Shown here in pieces: positions 8,923-21,989 of a DNA stretch of 64,000 bases. The position numbers were made by a program, and so were the translations under genes. Source of the stretch: Bacteroidales bacterium (lineage in GTDB: Bacteria; Bacteroidota; Bacteroidia; Bacteroidales; UBA1715); assembly GCA_017516865.1 (NCBI GenBank), contig JAFXAU010000009.1:151498-215497 (forward strand). The letters are read 5' to 3'. The notes under the pieces are model-generated. The model made no database searches. It worked only from the letters and a program-made list of their open reading frames with translations, and was not told where the DNA came from. Numbering within the stretch: position 1 is the first letter of the stretch; each line of letters starts with the position of its first letter.

Positions 8923-9050
8923 TTACTTTCTGTCGCTGAAGACAGAAAGTAACAGAACAAAATGGAACAGAATAAATATGCTATATCTGTTGCGGTCGGA
9001 GGTCGGATTACAAATCCTCATGCACGCAGCGGCTGGATTACAAATCCAGC
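8923..9050. repeat. REP-like cluster: type 4 hairpin plus two ggattacaaatcc palindromes
   Basis: ttactttctgtc-gctgaa-gacagaaagtaa (8923-8952) is a perfect 12-bp stem. ggattacaaatcc lies at 9005-9017 and gctggattacaaatccagc at 9032-9050. Confidence 0.8.
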
Positions 9051-9113
9051 CGAACTGGAGAAGAATTTTAATAAAAAAAAGGAGATTTTTTCAATCTCCT
9101 TTTTTTGTTCTCA

Positions 9114-10776: not shown

Positions 10777-10826
10777 GGCTGGATTGTTCGGTCGGATTTG
10801 CAATCCGACCGCCAGCCGAACTGGTG
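10777..10826. repeat. Nested REP-like element (type 1 palindrome inside a type 3 hairpin)
   Basis: The sequence is ggctggatt[gttcggtcggatttgcaatccgaccg]ccagccgaactgg. The copy at 9031-9058 reads ggctggatt[acaaat]ccagccgaactgg. The type 1 unit therefore occupies the loop position of a type 3 unit. Confidence 0.75.
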
Positions 10827-10963
10827 TTGATTGAAATTAAATAAAACCAGATAACTATATTATTATAGTTCATTTCAATGAGAACGACTATCTTTATGCC
10901 CAGATATGCATAAGATACTCTTTGGTGACATATGATTACTTTTTCAACAGATAGAAGAATAAG

Positions 10964-11305
10964 ATGAATATAGAGGATTATCGTGAGTACTGCCTGTCGT
11001 TGGGTTCAGACGTGGAAGAGAAATTACCTTTCACAGCTTTACAGTATGCTTCTGGTGTTTTGGTTTTTTACGTGCACGGTCACATGTTTTCTTTTTTCGA
11101 TTGCGATAATTTCAGCATAGTCACTCTCAAATGTCAACCAGATCGGATAGAAGAACTGAAAGCAAAGTATAGTTGCATTGGCAAACCATTCAATCTGTCA
11201 ACTAAGTATTGGATAGGTGTAGACGCAAATACAGCTCCCGATGCACTCCTTCAGGAACTTACACGCAACTCTTACGAGATTGTAAAAGCAAAATACAAGA
11301 AATAA
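10964..11305 (+). CDS. YjbR/MmcQ family DNA-binding protein
   Basis: 113 aa. The N-terminal IEDYREYCLSLGSDVEEKLPF and the overall length and pattern are typical of YjbR/MmcQ (PF04237-like). Confidence 0.7.
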   Translation: MNIEDYREYCLSLGSDVEEKLPFTALQYASGVLVFYVHGHMFSFFDCDNFSIVTLKCQPDRIEELKAKYSCIGKPFNLSTKYWIGVDANTAPDALLQELTRNSYEIVKAKYKK

Positions 11306-11322
11306 AAATTGACATACGCAGA

Positions 11323-11363
11323 TTTTCTGTTCGGGCGGATTTGCAATCCGACCGAACAGAAAA
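11323..11363. repeat. Extended REP-like palindrome (19-bp arms), terminator-like
   Basis: ttttctgttcgggcggatt-tgc-aatccgaccgaacagaaaa with one mismatch. It lies 18 nt after the yjbR-like stop codon. Confidence 0.8.
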
Positions 11364-11551
11364 GTGTACCATTATTTCTTTACGGCATAAATTCGATATA
11401 TATGCCAAATTTTTCTATCTTTAGGAAAAGAATTATTGTTTTTTTCCTATTTTTACACCAATGCCTATTCAACAAAATAGGCTGATTAGAAATTAAAGTG
11501 GTCTTTCCAATATTATTAAAACTAAAGAGGAATTTTTAATAAAAGGTGTGT

Positions 11552-12067
11552 ATGAAAGATGTATTAAAAGACTTTGTGAAAAAACTTTTGGCAGAAAAAC
11601 ATTATTCTGAAGAAGTTCAAAATATTTTGAACCTAATTTTGAATGATAAGATGTTTTTCCCTGAAATAAAATCAATTATTGATAAAAGTTCATCTGACAA
11701 GATAGAAATCAAAAAGGAACTTGCCAATGTAGTATATGACTATATTGAATTGTGTTTGGAAGATGGTCTTGTAACAAAAGAAGAATTTACAACGGTAAAA
11801 AAAATGAGATTGTTTTTTGACATCGAAGAAGGTGATTCTTATAAATTTGGCTTAAAAGCAAGAATAGAACAATTATTAACAATTGAACTTGATAAGATGT
11901 ATGCAGACAAGGTTGTTAATGAAGAAGAAGCACTTACAAAAGTTGAATTACAGGCGTTATTCGGATTATGTTATGAAGATTTCTATGAAATAGATAAAAA
12001 GATTGCCCAAAAAGCAATCAATAATGGAGCAAAAATGAAAGATTTAGGAACGTATTTTGATGTGTAA
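11552..12067 (+). CDS. Hypothetical protein, weak TerB-like signature; first gene of the 7-gene operon
   Basis: ATG at 11552 is preferred over GTG at 11546. The stretch LEDGLVTKEEFTTVKKMRLFFDI resembles the ADG..E...L helix pair of TerB-type domains. The stop is fused to the next start (TAAATG at 12065-12070). Confidence 0.4.
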   Translation: MKDVLKDFVKKLLAEKHYSEEVQNILNLILNDKMFFPEIKSIIDKSSSDKIEIKKELANVVYDYIELCLEDGLVTKEEFTTVKKMRLFFDIEEGDSYKFGLKARIEQLLTIELDKMYADKVVNEEEALTKVELQALFGLCYEDFYEIDKKIAQKAINNGAKMKDLGTYFDV

Positions 12068-13936
12068 ATGGCTTGGTCTTTTAGAAAACGGATAAAGATT
12101 GCTCCTGGCGTTCATATGAATGTAGGGAAAAACGGACCCAGTTTCTCTGTTGGCGGGAAAGGAATGAGTGTAACCTATGGAAAAAACGGAACATATTTAA
12201 ATTCAAACATACCAGGAACAGGATTGCGCAATAGACAAAAAATCGCTGATGGAAAAATAAATGATATCAACGCATCTCAATTTATGGAGAATAAAAAATC
12301 TGAAAACTCAGGATGTTTGCTTAATGCAGCTTGGCTTTTATCATGGATAATGTTGATAATTGTTACTTTACTTATATTTGCTTTTAGTTCTACTTGGGGA
12401 ATAATTTTTATTCTTGGTATAGTAGGATTAAAAATTGTAATCAACAAAAAGGAAGAAAAGCCTTCGGAGGAAGTAAAACAAAGTACACCTCTGAAAATGA
12501 ATATTTCTGATGAATTTGACAATAGAACTATTACGAAGGATTATTTTTTTGCTGTTACATCAGAAATTGAAAAAATAATTCTATTTCTTGATATTTTGTG
12601 CCAAGACCAAGATTTTTTTGTTTTTTTAAAAACCGTAAATGGTTTAAACATATCGATACAAGGAAGAACTGCAAAGACGGAAGAGCAACTGCGAGTTCTG
12701 ATTTTGACGGATATGACAAAATGTCTTGTGGAATTGGATCACAAAGTGAATGTAAAAGAGAAAGAATGTTTTGGGTTATTTTATTTCTTTTGTCGTACAA
12801 ACGGCATGGATAGATTTGAATACGATAAACTGGATTTTATCATGAAGAAAAATGTGTGTGAATCCGTAGAAGATGTAATACAACAAATAATTTCTTCTAT
12901 AAATATGAATCAACCTGTAGAGGAAATATTTTTGTTATCCACTCTATTAAAAGATTATAACACTGATTTGAGAGATAAATATCTTGTTATGTTATATCGT
13001 TATGCGTCCTTAACCGCAAAGGCTGATGGCGTTGTTAATGAGAAGGAATCAGAATGGTTGAGTAAAATACTAAGCTTGTCGGAGAAAAATGTTAACAATA
13101 CAACTGAAAATTCTTCGACAATTCAAAGGAGTAAGAATCAACAAAAACTACCACAACTAAAATCGTTAATAGGATTATTTTCGGTAAAAAAAGAAATAGA
13201 ATCACTAACAAATCTCATAAAAATCCAACAAGAAAGAGAAGCAAAAGGTTTGAAAAACTCCGCCGTTTCATATCATTGTGTATTCACCGGAAATCCTGGT
13301 ACTGGAAAAACAACTGTTGCAAGAATCGTGGCGAGTATATATAAAAAACTTGGTATTTTGAAAAAAGGACACCTTGTGGAAACAGACAGGTCGGGATTGG
13401 TCGCCGAATATGTCGGACAAACTGCAGTGAAAACAAATAAGATAATTGATAGTGCATTAGATGGTGTATTGTTTATTGATGAGGCATATTCTTTGATTTC
13501 GTCGAGTGAGAATGATTATGGGAAAGAAGCCGTTGCCACATTGTTAAAAAGACTAGAAGATAATCGGGATAGATTGGTTGTTATTCTCGCTGGATATTCA
13601 AATGAAATGCAACACTTTATTGATTCAAATCCTGGACTTCAATCAAGGTTTAACAGATATATAGAATTTCCTGATTACTCGGCAGATGAATTATATCAGA
13701 TCTTTGAAAAAAATGCAAAAGATTTTGATTATACAATTTCAGAAGAAGCAGAGAAGCGGTTGAAAGCATTATTAATAAATGAAGTTGCGAACAAAGATAA
13801 GAATTTTGGCAATGCCCGTTTTGTACGCAATTTATTTGAACGGACTATAGAACGACAGGCAAATAGATTGTCAAAAGAAAGCAATCTGACTGACAAAAAA
13901 TTAGCGGAGATTTGTTCTGTTGATATTCCAATGTAA
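12068..13936 (+). CDS. DUF4236 - 2 TM - TerB-like - AAA+ ATPase (CbxX/SpoVK-type)
   Basis: The N-terminus MAWSFRKRIKIAPGVHMNVGKNGPSFSVGGKGMSV..IPGTGL matches the DUF4236 pattern. A hydrophobic stretch LLNAAWLLSWIMLIIVTLLIFAFSSTWGIIFILGIVGLKIVI follows. LYRYASLTAKADGVVNEKESEWLSKIL is TerB-like. Walker A GNPGTGKT lies at nt 13289-13312 and Walker B is VLFIDEAYSL. The C-terminal half as a whole is CbxX/SpoVK-like. Confidence 0.75.
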   Translation: MAWSFRKRIKIAPGVHMNVGKNGPSFSVGGKGMSVTYGKNGTYLNSNIPGTGLRNRQKIADGKINDINASQFMENKKSENSGCLLNAAWLLSWIMLIIVTLLIFAFSSTWGIIFILGIVGLKIVINKKEEKPSEEVKQSTPLKMNISDEFDNRTITKDYFFAVTSEIEKIILFLDILCQDQDFFVFLKTVNGLNISIQGRTAKTEEQLRVLILTDMTKCLVELDHKVNVKEKECFGLFYFFCRTNGMDRFEYDKLDFIMKKNVCESVEDVIQQIISSINMNQPVEEIFLLSTLLKDYNTDLRDKYLVMLYRYASLTAKADGVVNEKESEWLSKILSLSEKNVNNTTENSSTIQRSKNQQKLPQLKSLIGLFSVKKEIESLTNLIKIQQEREAKGLKNSAVSYHCVFTGNPGTGKTTVARIVASIYKKLGILKKGHLVETDRSGLVAEYVGQTAVKTNKIIDSALDGVLFIDEAYSLISSSENDYGKEAVATLLKRLEDNRDRLVVILAGYSNEMQHFIDSNPGLQSRFNRYIEFPDYSADELYQIFEKNAKDFDYTISEEAEKRLKALLINEVANKDKNFGNARFVRNLFERTIERQANRLSKESNLTDKKLAEICSVDIPM

Positions 13937-13948
13937 AATGTATGTACT

Positions 13949-14791
13949 ATGGCGTCTGTTGAGAAATCACTAAAAATCAATTGTTTTATGGTTGTAATCG
14001 GTACCATAATACTAATTTTTTTACTATCAAATGAAACAAATGATACCGATAAATTTGATTTTACAAGTCCAGGAGCGAATATTCAACATAATGAAAAGAT
14101 AGAAATTCCCACAAAAATCAAAAATAGGACTGAACAAATCATAACTCATATAGGTTATACGGTAAGTTATAATTCCGATTGGAAAATCCCTAATTGGGTT
14201 GCATACGAACTAACAAAAGAAGAGGCAGAAGGCACTGTGTCACGTGCCACAGCGTTTGTCCCCGACCCCAAAGTCCCTTATGGTAAATCGGCGGAAACAT
14301 ATGATTATTCAAATTCTGGTTGGGATAGAGGACATATGGCTCCTGCAGGTGATATGAAATGGAGTGTTGATGCGATGAAAGAATCCTTTTACCTTTCAAA
14401 TATCTGTCCACAAAATAAGAATCTCAATAGTGGTATTTGGAATGATTTAGAGGTACAAGTACGAGAATTGGCACGTCAAAAAGGGAAAATCTATGTGGTT
14501 TGTGGTCCTATTGTGTCGAAAAATCCTAAAACAATCGGAACTAACAAAGTTGCAATTCCCGATGCTTTCTTTAAAGCGTTGCTACAAAATGATAATGAAG
14601 AATGGTGTGCTATTGCATTTATGTTTGCCAATGTTAGTGGACGAAAACCACTTGCTTCGTATGCTATGAGCGTTGAAGATTTGCAGGCTATTACAGATAT
14701 TGATTTCTTTCCTTCTTTACCCGATAGCATAGAACAAATGGTGGAAAGTAAAGTTGACTTCACGAAATGGAATATTAAATCAAATAAATAA
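13949..14791 (+). CDS. Membrane-anchored/secreted DNA/RNA non-specific endonuclease (NucA/Serratia-type beta-beta-alpha-Me)
   Basis: N-terminal anchor INCFMVVIGTIILIFLLS. Active-site motif DRGHMAP lies at nt 14324-14344. The downstream NICPQNKNLNSGIWNDLE matches the Mg-ligand Asn region of the family. Confidence 0.85.
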   Translation: MASVEKSLKINCFMVVIGTIILIFLLSNETNDTDKFDFTSPGANIQHNEKIEIPTKIKNRTEQIITHIGYTVSYNSDWKIPNWVAYELTKEEAEGTVSRATAFVPDPKVPYGKSAETYDYSNSGWDRGHMAPAGDMKWSVDAMKESFYLSNICPQNKNLNSGIWNDLEVQVRELARQKGKIYVVCGPIVSKNPKTIGTNKVAIPDAFFKALLQNDNEEWCAIAFMFANVSGRKPLASYAMSVEDLQAITDIDFFPSLPDSIEQMVESKVDFTKWNIKSNK

Positions 14792-14798
14792 TCGGAAT

Positions 14799-15464
14799 AT
14801 GAAAAGTAAATTCAAAAGCATATTAGGTGCATTGCTTGTGACGGCAACAGCCAAAGTTATGGCAAATCCCCAAATAGACGCTTCGTCTGTTGCTACACAA
14901 TCCGACAATAATAACGATAATAATGTGGAATTGAAAAAAGGGAAACAGAAACTTCTACAAAAATATATCATAAAATTCCATACTGATAATACTTACGGCA
15001 TTTTCGGGCACCGTAGCCATAGTTCCCATCGTAGTCACAGTTCTCATCGTTCTTCAAGTTCGGGAAGTTATTATTCTCCGTCAAGTAGCTCAAAATCTTA
15101 TTCGGGTAGTAGTTATTCGTCTGGCTCATCAAGTAGTAGTACATCATCCTCAAGCAAGACGACTACATCGAGTTCCTTTAAATCCTATAATGTCACTAAT
15201 GCTTCAGAAGCAAAAATTTGTAATTTAGGAGATAGAACAATTTCATTAGGTTCGTGTGGTACTGATGTGAAAGTGCTTGCCTCATTGTTGGTAAAACACG
15301 GTTATCTTGCCGAAAGTGATATAGAAACAAATGCCGATGGTTATACAATCTGTAATGCGGCAATGGTAACTGCCATCAAAAAATTCCAAAAAGATGCAGG
15401 ATTAACCGTTGATGGCTACGCAGGTGCTACGACAATAACAATGTTGAAGAATTGGAAGAAATAA
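14799..15464 (+). CDS. hxsA: His-Xaa-Ser repeat protein HxsA-like, with signal peptide, poly-Ser tract and C-terminal peptidoglycan-binding domain
   Basis: The start is moved to MKSKFKSILGALLVTATAKVMA (signal peptide). There are five consecutive HxS triplets, HRSHSSHRSHSSHRS (nt 15009-15053), followed by a ~45-aa Ser/Tyr-rich tract. The C-terminus GTDVKVLASLLVKHGYL...AIKKFQKDAGLTVDGYAGATTITML is PG_binding_1-like. Confidence 0.75.
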   Translation: MKSKFKSILGALLVTATAKVMANPQIDASSVATQSDNNNDNNVELKKGKQKLLQKYIIKFHTDNTYGIFGHRSHSSHRSHSSHRSSSSGSYYSPSSSSKSYSGSSYSSGSSSSSTSSSSKTTTSSSFKSYNVTNASEAKICNLGDRTISLGSCGTDVKVLASLLVKHGYLAESDIETNADGYTICNAAMVTAIKKFQKDAGLTVDGYAGATTITMLKNWKK

Positions 15465-15471
15465 AAGTAAA

Positions 15472-15783
15472 ATGGTTCAGTCATTTTCAATAGAAGTGAA
15501 TCGTAATGTGTACGATGACGTTGTTATAAGTCAAGTTGTGTATTGGCATTCCGATGACTTTGTAATTACTCGAAACGTGAATGATAATACGGAAACTATT
15601 ACATTACATCCGAGAGATATCCATATAACAAATGAAGAAAAAGAAAGAGTTCTACAACAATTCCAACAAGATTTGAATGATTTTAAATTACGGCAAATTG
15701 TAGCACAGGAAACAAAAGATATTCGTACTATTCTGTACATCAAAGCATTTGCAAACAACGATGATTTTGTAGATTATGAGTAG
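15472..15783 (+). CDS. hxsD: His-Xaa-Ser system protein HxsD-like
   Basis: 103 aa. The motif DLNDFKLRQ resembles the LLNDYxLRE signature that names TIGR03976. The position immediately before the two radical SAM genes also fits. Confidence 0.65.
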   Translation: MVQSFSIEVNRNVYDDVVISQVVYWHSDDFVITRNVNDNTETITLHPRDIHITNEEKERVLQQFQQDLNDFKLRQIVAQETKDIRTILYIKAFANNDDFVDYE

Positions 15784-17197
15784 TGCTTCGTATTATTTGT
15801 TGCCCTTCTATTTCCGACGGCTAAATCACAAGGAAATCCTTGTTAATGAAGTTGGGGATTATATAGTTGCCCCACAAGGGACTGTAGAACGAATAGTTTA
15901 TCGAAAGATAGAAGAAAAGGAAGACTTGTTTCACGATTTATTAGCCAACTATATTATCAGTCTAACACCAATTCCCGACCTAATAGATATATACGCAGTA
16001 AGATTACGAACAAAGAAATCGTTTTTAGATGGTTTTACAGCCCTGCACATATTTGTATTGACATTGCGTTGCAATCAGAATTGTGTTTATTGTCAAGCAT
16101 CAAGTCAAAAAGAAAATGCTTGTTACAAGGATATGCAAGTAGAAGATTTGAGAAAATCAGTAGAACTGATGTTTAAATCTCCTTCACAGCATCTGACAAT
16201 GGAATTTCAAGGTGGCGAGCCAACTCTAACACCTCATTTGATTCGAATTGCAGCGGAATATGCTTCGCAAATCAATCTAACTCAAAAAAGAGAACTCACT
16301 TTTGTCCTTTGCACGAATTGCGTAAATTTAACTGATGAGGTCTTGGAAATCTGTAAGCAGTACAATATTCTTATTTCAACATCGTTAGATGGACCTGCAA
16401 CATTACACAATCGCAATAGAGGTAAAAATGATAGTTATGAAAAAGTGATTGCAGGTATAGAAAAAGCCCGAACCCTTTTGGGTATGGATAAAGTTTCTGC
16501 TTTGATGACGACATCCATTGAAGCATTACAATACTCAAAAGAAATAGTCGATTCTTATATAGAAAACAATTTTCATAGCATATTTATTCGGGCGTTGAAT
16601 CCATATGGCTTGGCTGTAGAAAACACCAATTGGGAAGATTACAATTCTCGCTTTATAGATTTTTATAAAACAACATTGGAATATATTCTTGAAATCAACA
16701 AAAAAGGAGTATTCTTTGTTGAGGAATTTGCTTGTCTTGTTTTACGAAAAATACTGACACCATTCCCTATTGGTTTTGTTGATTTACAATCTCCTGCAGG
16801 GGTGATAAATAGTGTGATAGTCTATAATTATGATGGATATGTTTACGCTTCTGACGAATCCCGAATGTTGGCAGAAAAACAGGATTTTACATTTCGTTTG
16901 GGCAAAATAAGCGATACATATGAGAATATTTTCTATGGGGAGAAATCTCAAAAAATATCACAAACTTGGTCTAATGAGTGTCTTGCAGGCTGTTCCAATT
17001 GTTCATATCAGTCCTATTGTGGAGCCGACCCAGTGAGAAATTACTCCACACAGGGTGATATGTATGGACATCGCCCAACGTCATTGCTATGTAAAAAGTA
17101 TAAATCCATTATTGATTATATTTTTTTACTATTGATGGAAAGAGAAAACGAGGTTTTACCTATTTTTAAGTCGTGGATAAATAAAACTGATGCATAG
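15776..17197 (+). CDS. hxsB: His-Xaa-Ser system radical SAM/SPASM maturase HxsB-like
   Basis: CX3CX2C motif CNQNCVYC lies at nt 16070-16093. A GGEPTL motif is present. The C-terminal Cys cluster CLAGCSNCSYQSYCGADP...LCKKYK is SPASM-like. The gene overlaps hxsD by 8 nt. Confidence 0.8.
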   Translation: MSSASYYLLPFYFRRLNHKEILVNEVGDYIVAPQGTVERIVYRKIEEKEDLFHDLLANYIISLTPIPDLIDIYAVRLRTKKSFLDGFTALHIFVLTLRCNQNCVYCQASSQKENACYKDMQVEDLRKSVELMFKSPSQHLTMEFQGGEPTLTPHLIRIAAEYASQINLTQKRELTFVLCTNCVNLTDEVLEICKQYNILISTSLDGPATLHNRNRGKNDSYEKVIAGIEKARTLLGMDKVSALMTTSIEALQYSKEIVDSYIENNFHSIFIRALNPYGLAVENTNWEDYNSRFIDFYKTTLEYILEINKKGVFFVEEFACLVLRKILTPFPIGFVDLQSPAGVINSVIVYNYDGYVYASDESRMLAEKQDFTFRLGKISDTYENIFYGEKSQKISQTWSNECLAGCSNCSYQSYCGADPVRNYSTQGDMYGHRPTSLLCKKYKSIIDYIFLLLMERENEVLPIFKSWINKTDA

Positions 17198-18072
17198 TGA
17201 GAGATACCATTGACATACATTCAAATGACAATACTTTATTTGTTACAGGTCAATGTAACAATCGTTGTTTGATGTGTTGTCAGCCACCGACTAAAAAAGA
17301 CGATATTGATTTCTTTTATCAAAAAAATAAAAAAATTATTGAAAGTGCTCCCGAATCATTAAGTGTTATTGGCATTTCGGGCGGTGAACCTACATTGTTG
17401 GACGAGAAATTATTTATGTTGATTTCGCTTATTCAAAAAAAAATGCCAAATACATATATCCATATTTTGTCAAATGGACGTAAATTTTCCGATTGCACAT
17501 ACACTGAGAAATTTACATATCTTGCAAAAGAAAAAATCACTCTTGGAATTCCACTTCATTCAGATTCTGCCTTGATTCACGACAAAATAGCCGGAGTAAA
17601 AGGTGCTTATACCGAAACAATGTTAGGACTATACAATTTGGCGGCAAACGAAATGGACATCGAATTACGTATAGTATTGAACAAACAAAATTATTTTCGC
17701 CTGCCACAGATGGCTCGCTTCATATCAAAAAATCTTGTTTTTATTTCAAGTGTTGCTTTTATGGCGATGGAAGATATTGGATATACCATAAAGAATAGGG
17801 ATTTTATTTGGATTGAACCTATTGAGTATATTGATTATTTACAACAGGCAGTTCTGTTCCTGTCCCAATTTAATTTTGATGTTGCATTATTCAACCTACC
17901 GCTTTGTTTATTACCAAACGAAATAAAACCTTTTGCAAGAAAATCAATATCGGATTGGAAAAATACTTTTCTTTCTCAATGTAATAATTGTACATTACAG
18001 AAGGATTGTTGTGGACTTTTTTCGACTTCACAAAGTGTATATAAAGGACTAAAAACTATTAAAACAATATAA
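17197..18072 (+). CDS. hxsC: His-Xaa-Ser system radical SAM maturase HxsC-like
   Basis: The GTG start overlaps the hxsB stop (TAGTG). CX3CX2C motif CNNRCLMC lies at nt 17254-17277. GGEPTLL is present, and a C-terminal CNNCTLQKDCCG cluster follows. Confidence 0.75.
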   Translation: MRDTIDIHSNDNTLFVTGQCNNRCLMCCQPPTKKDDIDFFYQKNKKIIESAPESLSVIGISGGEPTLLDEKLFMLISLIQKKMPNTYIHILSNGRKFSDCTYTEKFTYLAKEKITLGIPLHSDSALIHDKIAGVKGAYTETMLGLYNLAANEMDIELRIVLNKQNYFRLPQMARFISKNLVFISSVAFMAMEDIGYTIKNRDFIWIEPIEYIDYLQQAVLFLSQFNFDVALFNLPLCLLPNEIKPFARKSISDWKNTFLSQCNNCTLQKDCCGLFSTSQSVYKGLKTIKTI

Positions 18073-18164
18073 AAATGAATAATTGGAGAAAAACAATATT
18101 TGAGATTGTAGAAACAGATAGAGAAACAACAGCCAGTAGGATATATGACAAAATAATGCTCCGT

Positions 18165-18385
18165 CTGTTCGGGCGGATTTGCAATCCGACCGCAACGAAT
18201 ACCAGCATTTTCAATGCGGGAAAACAACAAGCAGTAAATAAACACAAATCCAAAATGTGGGGCGTTGTTTATGTGGCGGATTACAAATCCTTATATTCAT
18301 AGCTGCTGGATTGCAAATCCAGCAGAACGAAGCAAATCCAGCAGAACAAGGTTACTTTCTGTTGCTGAAGACAGAAAGTAACAGA
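18165..18385. repeat. Composite REP-like element (types 1, 2, 3, 3-half, 4)
   Basis: Contains cgggcggatttgcaatccgaccg, gcggattacaaatcc, ctgctggattgcaaatccagcag and ttactttctgttgctgaagacagaaagtaa. About 165 nt are roughly 94 percent identical (by eye) to 19942-20109 in direct orientation. Confidence 0.85.
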
Positions 18386-18387
18386 AA

Positions 18388-18435
18388 AAGAATTTGCTTT
18401 TTCCGTAAATGTTTGTACATTAGCGCTGAAAAAAT
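18388..18435 (+). repeat. 48-nt cassette leader, copy 1
   Basis: aagaatttgctttttccgtaaatgtttgtacattagcgctgaaaaaat matches 19202-19249 at 45 of 48 positions. It ends 6 nt before an ATGGAA start codon, as copy 2 does. Confidence 0.7.
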
Positions 18436-18441
18436 CCAATT

Positions 18442-18612
18442 ATGGAAGATAAAATCATACTATCGGGCTTGACGCTGGCTCAAATACAGAGCAAAGCACA
18501 GTATATACTTGAAACAGAAGTGAAGCCACGTTCCGAGTTGTTTCGGATTCGCAAGCGAGAAGGTCGTTTAAGCAAAGAAGTAATGGATCTTATAAAACAA
18601 CAAAATGCCTGA
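18442..18612 (+). CDS. Small ORF (56 aa), candidate antitoxin/partner of the zeta-like kinase
   Basis: It is below the ORF-track cutoff. My translation is MEDKIILSGLTLAQIQSKAQYILETEVKPRSELFRIRKREGRLSKEVMDLIKQQNA. Its stop overlaps the next gene's start by 8 nt (ATGCCTGA). Confidence 0.45.
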   Translation: MEDKIILSGLTLAQIQSKAQYILETEVKPRSELFRIRKREGRLSKEVMDLIKQQNA

Positions 18613-19222
18613 ACTAACCATTATCGCAGGGTGCAACGGTGCCGGAAAATCCACATTCGCAAAATCATTTTTGCCAGCAAATGAAACCTCATTTGATTAC
18701 GATAGAAATTTCTTGGAATATTATAATTCATTGCCTGATAGCGAATTTCGCGACGCTTTTGCTCAAAAAAAAGTAAACGATTTGTTTCAATCCGAGATAG
18801 AATTTGCGTTAGCCAACAAACTGAATTTCTGTTACGAAACCAATTATGATGAATATCCATTGTATTGGGCTGAGAAGTTCAAAGAGCAAGAGTATTCTGT
18901 GACACTTGTCTTTTTCTGTTTGGAAAACACTTCGATTGCAACCGAACGTATTTTAATGCGTAAAGAGTTTAAAGGACATTTTATCGATAATAGAACCGTT
19001 GGCGAAAAATGGAAGAAGGGATATAAAAATCTTGATGAGACATTTCATTTTTTCAATAAAATAATTGTGGTTGACAACTCCGTGGATGATTGTATGTACA
19101 AAACACTTTTGTACATGGAACAAGATTCCGTTCAACTATTAACCGAATTACCCTCTTATTTTGCAGAACGTTTGCCAAAATTGTACGCAGAGGTTCAAAA
19201 AAAGAATTTGCTTTTCCCTTAA
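18605..19222 (+). CDS. Zeta-toxin-like P-loop kinase/ATPase (COG4185-type)
   Basis: Walker A IIAGCNGAGKSTF. The central FCYETN, the later RILMRKEFKGHFIDNRTV..KGYKNL, and VVDNS follow the zeta/COG4185 pattern. The 3' end runs into leader copy 2. Confidence 0.65.
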   Translation: MPELTIIAGCNGAGKSTFAKSFLPANETSFDYDRNFLEYYNSLPDSEFRDAFAQKKVNDLFQSEIEFALANKLNFCYETNYDEYPLYWAEKFKEQEYSVTLVFFCLENTSIATERILMRKEFKGHFIDNRTVGEKWKKGYKNLDETFHFFNKIIVVDNSVDDCMYKTLLYMEQDSVQLLTELPSYFAERLPKLYAEVQKKNLLFP

Positions 19223-19255: not shown

Positions 19256-19558
19256 ATGGAAACAAATACTCGCTATTTAGAAATATTGCAGGCAAACAAA
19301 TCATATCTGCAACAGCAGTTTGCAGTTGATTCGTTGGTCGTGTTCGGCTCGGTTGCCCGCAACGAGATGACCGAAGATAGCGATGTGGACATTTTCGTAC
19401 AAATGCCTCCTAAAATGCTCTTGGTCATAGGCATAAAACAGTATCTGGAATCCCTGCTAAATCGACCTGTTGACGTCGTTCGCGACCACCCCAATATGAA
19501 CCCATTGTTAAAGAAACAAATTGAAAAAGATGGAATTCGAATCTTTGGAGCAGCATGA
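19256..19558 (+). CDS. mntA: MNT-type nucleotidyltransferase antitoxin
   Basis: The motif GSVARNEMTEDSDVDIFV matches the Pol-beta NTase signature GS.AR....SD.D. Confidence 0.85.
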   Translation: METNTRYLEILQANKSYLQQQFAVDSLVVFGSVARNEMTEDSDVDIFVQMPPKMLLVIGIKQYLESLLNRPVDVVRDHPNMNPLLKKQIEKDGIRIFGAA

Positions 19559-19913
19559 ACTGGTAATTTCAATTCTTCAACAAATAAAGAAAGCCATTCT
19601 CGATTTACAGGAATGGAACAACGATGTTGTATCGATTGATGGTTATTACAACAATTCGTCAGGTATGCAAAAACTAGCGGCAAGTTGTATGCTGTTGGAA
19701 GCAATTGGAGAAGGTTTCAAGAAAATTGACTCAATAACAAATCAAAAACTTTTAATTGAATATGATTCAATTCCATGGAAAGAAATCATGGGTATGAGAA
19801 ATCATATTGCACACGGTTATTTCGATATTGATGCTGAATTGGTTTTATATACAATAAAGAACGACCTTTCTTCCTTGTTAAATGCCGTGGAGTTTTTTCT
19901 GAAAAAACATTGA
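19521..19913 (+). CDS. hepT: HepT/DUF86 HEPN toxin
   Basis: RNHIAHGYFDID matches the Rx4-6H HEPN motif. The gene overlaps the MNT gene by 38 nt. Confidence 0.85.
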   Translation: MKKMEFESLEQHELVISILQQIKKAILDLQEWNNDVVSIDGYYNNSSGMQKLAASCMLLEAIGEGFKKIDSITNQKLLIEYDSIPWKEIMGMRNHIAHGYFDIDAELVLYTIKNDLSSLLNAVEFFLKKH

Positions 19914-19941
19914 CAGAGACAAGGATAATTTCATATATTCT

Positions 19942-20109
19942 CTGTTCGGGCGGATTTGCAATCCGACCGTAACGAATACCAGCATTTTCAATGCGAGAAA
20001 ACAACAAGAAGCAAATAAACACAATTACAAAATGTGGGGCGTTGTTTATGTGGCGGATTACAAATCCTTATATTCATAGCTGCTGGATTGCAAATCCAGC
20101 AGAACAAGG
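19942..20109. repeat. Composite REP-like element (types 1, 2, 3), direct repeat of 18165-18345
   Basis: It has the same order of palindromes and spacers as the copy at 18165. It overlaps the 3' end of the lipoprotein ORF on the minus strand. Confidence 0.85.
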
Positions 20110-20967: not shown

Positions 20968-21014
20968 TTGAGTCAATCTACGATAATCTTCACATCGGAC
21001 ACGGCAAGGGTCAC

Positions 21015-21078
21015 GGCTGCTGGATTGCAAATCCAGCAGAACAGCCGAACAAGAGAACAAGAAATCCAGCAGAACAAC
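21015..21078. repeat. REP-like element (type 3 plus half-copy)
   Basis: ctgctggatt-gca-aatccagcag (21017-21039), then aaatccagcagaac repeated at 21062-21075. Confidence 0.8.
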
Positions 21079-21296: not shown

Positions 21297-21617
21297 GTGA
21301 TTATGCAAAAAACTCAATTGCATTCAACAGAACAAATGAGCAATGTAATTGCCAATTATTTCAAAACACAACCTGTTTTGAAAGCATGGTTATTTGGTTC
21401 TTTTGCTCGTGGTGAGGAAACGGCGAAGAGTGATGTTGATATACTCGTGGTTCTTGATAACTCACAACCAGTTGGTTTAAAGTTTTTTAGAATGTGGGGG
21501 GATTTGGAACGGCTTCTTAACCGCAAAGTAGATTTGGTAACCGATGGTTCGTTGCTCCCATTCGCTGTTGAAAGTGCAAATCGTGACAAAAAACTGATAT
21601 ATGAGAGAACCGCTTAA
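21297..21617 (+). CDS. mntA: MNT-type nucleotidyltransferase antitoxin (second copy)
   Basis: GSFARGEETAKSDVDILVV motif. The start may instead be the ATG at 21303. Confidence 0.85.
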   Translation: MIMQKTQLHSTEQMSNVIANYFKTQPVLKAWLFGSFARGEETAKSDVDILVVLDNSQPVGLKFFRMWGDLERLLNRKVDLVTDGSLLPFAVESANRDKKLIYERTA

Positions 21618-21989
21618 AGATAAGAATAGACTGGAACATATTGTATCTGCCATAGACTTGATTCTTGGACGTGTAGAAGGTATGAAATATGAAGATTTTG
21701 TGGCAGACAAGTTGCTGTTTGGCGGAAAATAGTTTATCACACAATGATAATTGGCGAAGCAGCCTATAAACTTAGTCAGGAATTTAGAGAAAGTCACGCC
21801 CAGACGGATTGGCAAAGTATTGCTGATATGCGTCATCACCTTGTTCATGGTTATTATCAAGTTGACCCTTCTATAGTGTGGTCTGTGGTTCAAAATGAAC
21901 TTTCGCCGCTTCTGGAACAAGTAAAACAATATCTTGCAGAAACCAATTGGGAAGAATGGGAAAAACAAGAATCCCAAACAAAGAATTAA
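21601..21989 (+). pseudogene. hepT: HepT/DUF86 HEPN toxin, frameshifted
   Basis: ATG 21601 opens MREPLKDKNRLEHIVSAIDLILGRVEGMKYEDFVADKLLFGGK, which stops at TAG 21730-21732. The +1 frame continues IVYHTMIIGEAAYKL...MRHHLVHGYYQVD, which carries the HEPN motif. One extra A in the run at 21726-21729 would restore a single ~129-aa ORF. Confidence 0.7.

Follow-up and report, generated by a model that had tools for sequence, protein, structure and literature searches.

The HXS system of Escherichia coli was characterized experimentally by Li et al. (Nat Commun 2026;17:3910; PMC13128918; preprint January 2026), who found the hxsDBCA operon to be a broad antiphage system that restricts 110 of 113 coliphages and delays phage DNA entry. 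The HxsA protein of this system comprises a signal peptide (amino acids (aa) 1-22), five repeats of the type His-Xaa-Ser (HxS) and a peptidoglycan (PG)-binding domain, each of which, including every single repeat, is required, as are residues 23-47; residues 114-139, the equivalent of the spacer described below, are dispensable (PMC13128918). The N-terminus of E. coli HxsA is processed, the mature species consisting of residues 48-214, and HxsB, HxsC and HxsD are needed for this processing; the SHRSS of the last repeat in mature HxsA was identified as the site of a +8 Da modification, which was not assayable in hxsB, hxsC or hxsD mutants (PMC13128918). Mature HxsA is periplasmic and binds DNA, the binding being attributed to the basic His/Arg repeats, and unmodified HxsA that is targeted to the periplasm is insufficient for defence (PMC13128918). 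In the published census, 99.7% of the HXS systems are found in Pseudomonadota, the gene order is D-B-C-A in 99.6%, and more than 99.8% of the systems consist of the four Hxs genes alone (PMC13128918). Here we analyze a 64,000-nucleotide (nt) stretch of a Bacteroidales genome (contig JAFXAU010000009.1, positions 151,498 to 215,497), referred to as the window and numbered from its first letter, in which the open reading frame (ORF) 14799..15464 on the + strand encodes a 221-aa HxsA-type protein (translation checked). This protein is probably an HxsA that serves as the effector of an antiphage system of the HXS kind, encoded by an uncultured member of the Bacteroidales.

The hxsA gene is followed by hxsD, hxsB and hxsC, in the order A-D-B-C, with gaps of 7, −8 and −1 nt, so that the four genes are co-operonic; all three companions score above the respective NCBIfam cut-offs, which bears out the designation of the ORF as an HxsA-type substrate in a preliminary description of this DNA. 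The hxsD gene (15472..15783, +; 103 aa) matches TIGR03976 with 78.7 bits (cut-off 50); hxsB (15776..17197, +; 473 aa), which encodes a radical S-adenosylmethionine (SAM)/SPASM maturase, matches TIGR03978 over its full length at 559.4 bits (cut-off 370); and hxsC (17197..18072, +; 291 aa), which encodes a short form of the radical SAM enzyme, matches TIGR03977 at 336.5 bits (cut-off 267.9). A protein identical to the HxsB of the window is already labelled as such by NCBI (MBR3980201.1). In the HxsB alignment, neither the CxxxCxxC motif (C99/C103/C106) nor the Cys cluster at the C-terminus varies, both Cys clusters of HxsC are conserved in an alignment with the Klebsiella and Adhaeribacter proteins, and Y24, W25, L68, D70, L73 and R74 are invariant in the HxsD alignment; the YW and LNDxKLR motifs to which these HxsD residues belong are kept and are the counterparts of residues mutated in E. 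coli (Y23 of LYW; D61/R65 of LLNDYxLRE). Because the HxsA repeat tract, the Cys clusters and the HxsD motifs are all conserved, the same mechanism is assigned, by homology, to the HXS system of the window.

When the two systems are compared, the same four families are present in both, and the two HxsA proteins share an N-terminal segment of ~22 aa (a signal peptide in E. coli, signal-peptide-like here), five HxS repeats that end in SHRSS, a spacer rich in Ser and a domain for PG binding; the radical SAM Cys clusters, the HxsD motifs and a defence-related or mobile genomic context are common to both as well. The differences lie in the phylum (Pseudomonadota vs. Bacteroidota), the gene order (D-B-C-A vs. 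A-D-B-C), the low identity of the HxsB proteins (~29%), the position at which the HxsA tract begins (~58 in E. coli vs. aa 71 here), the length of HxsC, which in the window is ~80 aa shorter at the N-terminus, and the operonic joining of the cassette to genes for a nuclease and an AAA ATPase.

The HxsA protein of the window consists of five consecutive parts. The first, MKSKFKSILGALLVTATAKVMA (aa 1-22, 14799..14864, +), resembles a Sec-type signal peptide: by inspection, it has an n-region with K2, K4 and K6, a hydrophobic core (Kyte-Doolittle 2.2) and V-M-A at positions −3 to −1 before N23. An AlphaFold2 model, built on 61 sequences, places a helix at aa 3-21, and a K-rich, hydrophobic N-terminus recurs in almost all full-length HxsA homologues inspected; taken together, the heuristic features, the modelled helix and the conservation are suggestive of a signal-peptide-like segment, in accord with the signal peptide proposed in the preliminary description. 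Since this N-terminus contains no Cys, HxsA is not expected to be a lipoprotein. The second part is a leader-like region of ~48 aa (aa 23-70, 14865..15008, +), delineated by the AlphaFold2 model, a profile match and homologues, at the end of which a beta-hairpin (aa 55-60/66-71; moderate model confidence) abuts the repeats; aa 15-90 match the HxsA2 profile NF038296 at 35.4 bits, below the cut-off of 48. The third part consists of five consecutive HxS triplets, HRSHSSHRSHSSHRS (aa 71-85, 15009..15053, +), exactly where they had been placed earlier, with a single copy of the SHRSS motif at aa 82-86. The fourth is a low-complexity spacer rich in Ser, Tyr and Thr (aa 86-140, 15054..15218, +), predicted to be disordered, with a predicted local distance difference test (pLDDT) score below 50; the repeat tract is likewise disordered in the model. 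The Ser/Tyr/Thr string quoted in the preliminary description is indeed present and measures 42 aa, the low-complexity stretch extending over approximately aa 86-140.

The fifth part is a folded PG_binding_1 domain (aa 141-221 and the stop codon, 15219..15464, +), which is detected by Pfam, AlphaFold2 and Foldseek alike. PF01471 scores 39.2 bits over aa 154-216 (cut-off 23), aa 141-221 are modelled with a pLDDT of 94-98, and the best Foldseek match in the PDB is 6tci, the N-terminal domain of SleB, with a target-normalised TM-score (TMt) of 0.82, followed by PG-binding domains of phage endolysins and of L,D-transpeptidases (LdtA/YcbB); thus, the profile search and the fold both substantiate a domain that had originally been read from its sequence pattern. 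The small helical fold is shared with the PG_binding_1 modules of SleB, endolysins and L,D-transpeptidases (6tci, 5nm7, 3bkh, 7ajz, 6ntw), but whereas those modules target an enzyme to the wall, the one in HxsA would anchor a disordered and modified repeat tract, with no catalytic domain. ORFs of 55-63 aa on the opposite strand within 14799-15464 were treated as spurious.

The repeat tract was compared with chance expectation and across orthologues. When the whole protein, of which 20% is Ser, was shuffled 200,000 times, a run of five HxS triplets never arose (maximum 3), nor did one in 200,000 shuffles restricted to the Ser-rich segment (maximum 4). At the DNA level, Tandem Repeats Finder (TRF) reports a weak 18-nt period with 2.2 copies and an 85% match, and in orthologues the HxS peptide is kept with diverged codons for His, for Arg and for Ser, the latter of both the AGY and the TCN families. 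The weakness of the DNA period and the codon divergence in orthologues indicate that the tract is under selection at the peptide level rather than generated by slippage. Absence or variability of the tract in orthologues had been named as an outcome that would count against its significance; the tract is instead conserved.

Under the mechanism carried over from E. coli, the cytoplasmic HxsB and HxsC, together with HxsD, would introduce a covalent modification into the repeat tract and favour the processing of HxsA at its N-terminus; the matured protein would then be exported to the periplasm and docked on peptidoglycan via its C-terminal domain, and the spacer would let the basic His/Arg tract extend and interfere with incoming phage DNA. 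The radical SAM partners have no signal peptides, as read from their sequences, so that modification of HxsA must precede export. This order of events, along with export and peptidoglycan tethering, had been put forward in the preliminary description and matches the experiments on E. coli HxsA (PMC13128918); for E. coli, this topology is now published knowledge, and alone it is nothing new.

Several points weigh against the identification of the ORF as an HXS effector that works in this way. The signal-peptide call stems from heuristic features, the modelled helix and conservation. HxsA scores 56.3 bits against the TIGR03979 equivalog cut-off of 121.65, with an alignment that spans profile positions 18-184 of 190 (coverage deduced from the profile alignment and the Klebsiella member of the family); what is claimed on this basis is homology and shared architecture, not membership in the curated TIGR03979 equivalog. 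No model in PADLOC-DB 2023 matches HxsA or HxsD, which is uninformative given that the library predates the HXS paper; for the radical SAM enzymes, the same library returned weak pVip matches alone. The HXS mechanism has its experimental basis in E. coli and would extend to Bacteroidota by homology, and even for E. coli it is a partial one with regard to the +8 Da chemistry, the protease that processes HxsA and the way in which HxsA is exported (PMC13128918). Finally, the short HxsC of the window may mean that the maturation complex is organised differently from that of the studied systems.

This last point concerns an N-terminal domain of ~85 aa that is seen in the HxsC of Klebsiella (370 aa) and of Adhaeribacter (379 aa) and is lacking in the HxsC of the window. 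When all six reading frames of the entire 64-kb window were searched with a hidden Markov model of this domain, no match emerged (best E-value 0.49), compared to 1.4 × 10−10 for the Klebsiella HxsC. The short form is present in 23 of the 80 species loci that we analyzed (see below), and the long form in 54. An HxsC of ~290 aa is characteristic of a clade of gut and rumen Bacteroidales (within the range L013-L039 of our locus numbering), and the protein is long in Klebsiella, Cytophagales, Chitinophagales and Flavobacteriales.

Three relatives delimit the architecture of HxsA. The HxsA of a Klebsiella pneumoniae plasmid (WP_004118217.1, locus L002), a TIGR03979 member that is called HxsA by the NCBI Prokaryotic Genome Annotation Pipeline (PGAP), has a repeat tract, GHRSHSSHRSHSSHRSSS, identical to that of the window, together with a signal-like segment at the N-terminus, a spacer rich in Ser and a PF01471 match of 25.5 bits; it differs in the overall sequence (~33% identity), in the location of hxsA at the end of the operon, and in a weaker, more divergent PG domain. 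The plasmid locus of Adhaeribacter swui (NZ_CP055155.1) is, like the window, from Bacteroidota, with the A-D-B-C order and an HxsB that is 52.6% identical; its HxsA (WP_228466577.1) begins with a signal-like segment, contains 8 HxS repeats and a spacer, matches PF01471 at 64 bits, and is annotated as 'peptidoglycan-binding domain-containing protein' rather than HxsA. Unlike the window, this locus encodes the long HxsC, complete with its N-terminal domain, and neither a nuclease nor an AAA ATPase adjoins the cassette. The HxsA2 proteins (NF038296, ~100 aa) resemble the HxsA of the window from the signal-like N-terminus through the leader-like region to the HxS tract, but the 96-position profile ends at the repeat tract and, accordingly, includes neither spacer nor PG domain, whereas the HxsA of the window continues into both; with its score below the cut-off and a folded PG domain beyond the repeats, it falls outside HxsA2.

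Among the best 120 HxsA homologues listed, PF01471 is present in 117; a hydrophobic N-terminus is found in 117 of the 117 that are complete at this end, and all but one of these 117 carry 3-7 HxS repeats, with the tract starting at aa ~70-76 in most. The low-complexity spacer varies from 14 to 67 aa among the homologues, and in many relatives from Bacteroidales the PG-binding domain is present twice. Species-representative genomes were scanned by HxsB alignment (best HxsB identity, 66%), which confirmed at least 124 loci, nearly all of them labelled Bacteroidota, of which 80 were analyzed. The order is A-D-B-C in 71 of the 80 Bacteroidota loci, hxsA adjoins hxsD, hxsB and hxsC in all loci examined, and the HxS tract starts at approximately aa 45-84 across the Bacteroidota loci. 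The number of PG-binding domains could be scored in 79 HxsA proteins: 18 have none, 42 have a single one and 19 have two. The PG-less forms are HxsA2-like proteins of ~100-140 aa that end just past the repeats. Thus, with regard to the generality of the architecture, which had been raised as a point to check, the signal-like N-terminus and the HxS tract are universal, whereas the PG-binding fusion, in one or two copies, is general for HxsA of the TIGR03979 type and for most Bacteroidota HxsA and is missing from the short HxsA2-like forms. On the strength of these sequence comparisons, the universal core of HxsA is a signal-like N-terminus, a leader-like region and an HxS tract, the spacer and the PG anchor being usual but not obligatory.

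HxsA2-like forms with 6-12 HxS repeats, a signal-like N-terminus and no PG domain are common in Chitinophagia and Flavobacteriia, and some loci encode 2-3 HxsA paralogues (loci with HxsA2-like forms or paralogues: L044, L048, L050, L052, L053, L055, L056, L060, L062, L067, L071, L077, L091; L058, L075, L086). PGAP labels Bacteroidota HxsA merely "peptidoglycan-binding protein", and the HXS systems of this phylum were probably overlooked by the published census because their HxsA proteins fall below the TIGR03979 cut-off and are generically annotated.

In the window, the four hxs genes are the distal part of a seven-gene, same-strand array (11546-18072) that consists of the genes for a 173-aa protein, an AAA ATPase and an Endonuclease_NS, followed by hxsA, hxsD, hxsB and hxsC, with gaps of 0, 12, 7, 7, −8 and −1 nt, in this order. 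The nuclease (13949..14791, +; 280 aa; PF01223, 180 bits) is a non-specific endonuclease whose gene ends 7 nt before hxsA and is probably co-transcribed with it; as read from the sequence, the DRGH motif is intact and the N-terminus includes a hydrophobic segment. The protein, a candidate accessory factor, would be exported or membrane-anchored. The ATPase (12068..13936, +; 622 aa), whose gene lies 12 nt upstream of that of the nuclease, combines DUF4236, a transmembrane segment, a middle domain and an AAA ATPase of the SpoVK/CbbX type. A TerB-like fold, considered for the middle domain by eye ('ADG...E...L'), was dropped in the absence of a Pfam match at E ≤ 1; a stand-alone homologue of this domain, 226-236 aa in length, is encoded between the nuclease gene and hxsA in L014 and L015. 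The first gene of the array (11546..12067, +), which is separated from the ATPase gene by 0 nt, encodes the 173-aa protein, for which NCBIfam and Pfam profile searches gave no significant family match. Among the NCBIfam and Pfam matches of the array proteins, there was no metal-responsive or transport gene, no leader peptidase and no ABC exporter. A scan of 10800-18700 for sigma-70 promoters and intrinsic terminators yielded no excess over shuffled sequence and is uninformative; the tool does not extend to promoters of the Bacteroidota type.

The complete AAA-nuclease-HxsADBC array is kept in five relatives (L093, L095, L096, L097 and L098, the last of which was reached via its AAA ATPase), and in L094 the sequence ends upstream of the nuclease; the HxsA proteins of the array-keeping relatives other than L098 are 49-62% identical to that of the window, and a voltage-gated-type ion channel gene, together with a helix-turn-helix (HTH) gene, often precedes the DUF4236-AAA gene. 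Beyond these relatives, Endonuclease_NS genes on the same strand, encoding proteins with signal-like N-termini, are located within ~1.1 kb of the cassette in eight species loci, at varied positions: upstream of hxsA, at a distance of 27 nt in L051 (Pelobium) and with one more gene in between in L014 and L015, overlapping the hxsC stop codon in L030 and L034, 12 nt downstream in L090 (Tenacibaculum), and 0.8-1.1 kb downstream in L017 and L025. Of the 10 Endonuclease_NS matches obtained with phmmer in flanks of ~6 kb, 9 lie within the nearest 1.2 kb (binomial P = 4 × 10−6, the loci being phylogenetically non-independent), and an unrelated S1/P1 nuclease is encoded 242 nt upstream of hxsA in L062. 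Strict specificity of the AAA-nuclease pair for HXS was considered and rejected, given that L100 has the pair without HXS; a distant AAA protein is found alone in L099. The pair may be an independent module.

The neighbourhood of the array in the window is rich in toxin-antitoxin and defence genes: 3' of hxsC (18442-19222, 19256-19913 and 21297-21989), there are a small ORF with a zeta-toxin-like P-loop protein and two MNT/HEPN (MNT-HepT) pairs. The array is bracketed by palindromic repeats that resemble repetitive extragenic palindromic (REP) elements: one copy with the core GGCGGATTTGCAATCCGACCG (family D3) at 11322..11361 on the upstream side, and a composite copy of the repeat with this core (D1/D2/D3/I2) at 18160..18328, directly after hxsC. 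Further members of this repeat family separate the gene modules of the island at 9004-9059, 10779-10818, 19937-20105 and 20991-21042, and these repeats translate as spurious 'GRIANPTEQ' and 'GLQIQQN' ORFs. Among the other loci, the cassette of L007 is flanked by a type II CRISPR-Cas9 locus, and the extended HXS array of L098 has genes for an integrase, MobC and HTH proteins beside it, a setting suggestive of an integrative mobile element.

Other neighbours of the cassette recur as well. A voltage-gated-type ion channel is encoded in 8 loci, a DUF1036 protein in 7 and a kinase/VWA/PP2C triad in 5, and an SGNH/AlgX-like protein of 655-678 aa with an MBOAT acyltransferase, which may function in cell-wall modification, in 6-7. 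Also recurrent are an unannotated protein of ~395 aa whose gene overlaps the hxsA start, and an unannotated 365-aa protein; the loci with the ~395-aa, 365-aa, kinase/VWA/PP2C or SGNH-MBOAT neighbours are L010, L023, L025-L028, L031, L038 and L090. In L014, L015 and L017 (for example, L015, 24-3545), a membrane protein of ~1100 aa with a papain-family Peptidase_C1 domain is encoded beside the nuclease and HXS genes and is, conceivably, a candidate for the HxsA-processing protease.

The linkage with the nuclease raises the possibility, which we hold only tentatively, that HxsA stalls or exposes phage DNA at the wall and that the co-operonic exported Endonuclease_NS, possibly along with the DUF4236-AAA ATPase, destroys it. 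The placement of the nuclease gene 7 nt before hxsA inside a tight seven-gene array, the recurrence of Endonuclease_NS beside the cassette in eight species loci, at varied positions and nearly always (9 of 10) within 1.2 kb, the unrelated S1/P1 nuclease near hxsA in L062 and the persistence of the AAA-nuclease-HxsADBC array at 49-62% HxsA identity are all consistent with such a division of labour, which also agrees with the published DNA-binding model (PMC13128918). However, most Bacteroidota loci and the Klebsiella locus lack an adjacent nuclease, the four Hxs genes occur alone in nearly all systems of the census (PMC13128918), the loci compared are not phylogenetically independent, and the AAA-nuclease pair exists without HXS in L100, so that it is possibly a separate defence module that shares islands with HXS. 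Furthermore, secreted Endonuclease_NS enzymes may serve other roles, such as DNA scavenging. The broader proposition, that Bacteroidota HXS, above all that of the short-HxsC clade from gut and rumen Bacteroidales, is the core of a larger envelope defence with nuclease, DUF4236-AAA and ion channel accessories, is similarly possible but doubtful.

For HxsA itself, three readings compete with that of an antiphage effector. The preliminary description had favoured a structural or metal-chelating envelope component, in which the His/Ser tract binds metal or forms cross-links, and the His-rich tract, the envelope anchoring, the location of L007 next to cation-efflux and P-type ATPase genes, and the +8 Da change in E. 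coli, which could be a cross-link (PMC13128918), are compatible with it. This function was not borne out: the published role of the E. coli system is antiphage, through a block of phage DNA entry, with restriction of 110 of 113 phages and binding of DNA by periplasmic HxsA (PMC13128918), the genes around the cassettes are a varied set, with many defence or mobile elements, rather than metal-homeostasis regulons, and the array in the window has no metal-responsive or transport gene; we consider this reading improbable. Still less probable is a conventional precursor of a ribosomally synthesized and post-translationally modified peptide (RiPP), from which a small modified HxS peptide would be released, the PG part being a carrier. 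The leader-like N-terminal region with a modelled beta-hairpin before the core, the short HxsA2-like forms that make up 18 of the 79 HxsA scored, and the membership of HxsB in the SPASM peptide-maturase superfamily are features that such a precursor would have, but the mature E. coli HxsA (48-214) retains the PG domain, which is itself required (PMC13128918), as anticipated by the earlier statement that the product is not a diffusible RiPP; moreover, the precursor is 221 aa long with a folded domain, PF01471 is kept in 117 of the best 120 homologues listed, and the array has no leader peptidase or ABC exporter. As for low-complexity drift in a generic PG-binding protein, the Ser content of 20%, the weak 18-nt period and the sub-threshold TIGR03979 score could be cited in its favour, but none of the 200,000 shuffles gives five repeats, the tract is found at a similar distance from the N-terminus in homologues and is identical to the Klebsiella tract, the peptide is kept while codons diverge, and hxsA is always beside hxsD, hxsB and hxsC. 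The conservation data refute drift, to which we attach a negligible probability. An effector of an HXS antiphage system is therefore the identification that we retain for the ORF, with high but not full confidence.

HXS is widespread in Bacteroidota, with at least 124 species-level genomes identified in a single scan, in contrast to a census in which 99.7% of the systems belong to Pseudomonadota. Models of how HxsC, HxsD and HxsA assemble for maturation are constrained by the short HxsC of Bacteroidales from gut and rumen. If the proposed cooperation with the nuclease proves true, trapping and cutting of DNA in the envelope would be the first periplasmic immunity of its kind and would provide independent genomic support for the action of HxsA on DNA in the periplasm. 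The linkage with nucleases in shuffled positions is a clue to how the interception of phage DNA in the periplasm is completed and bears on phage-host dynamics in the gut microbiome.

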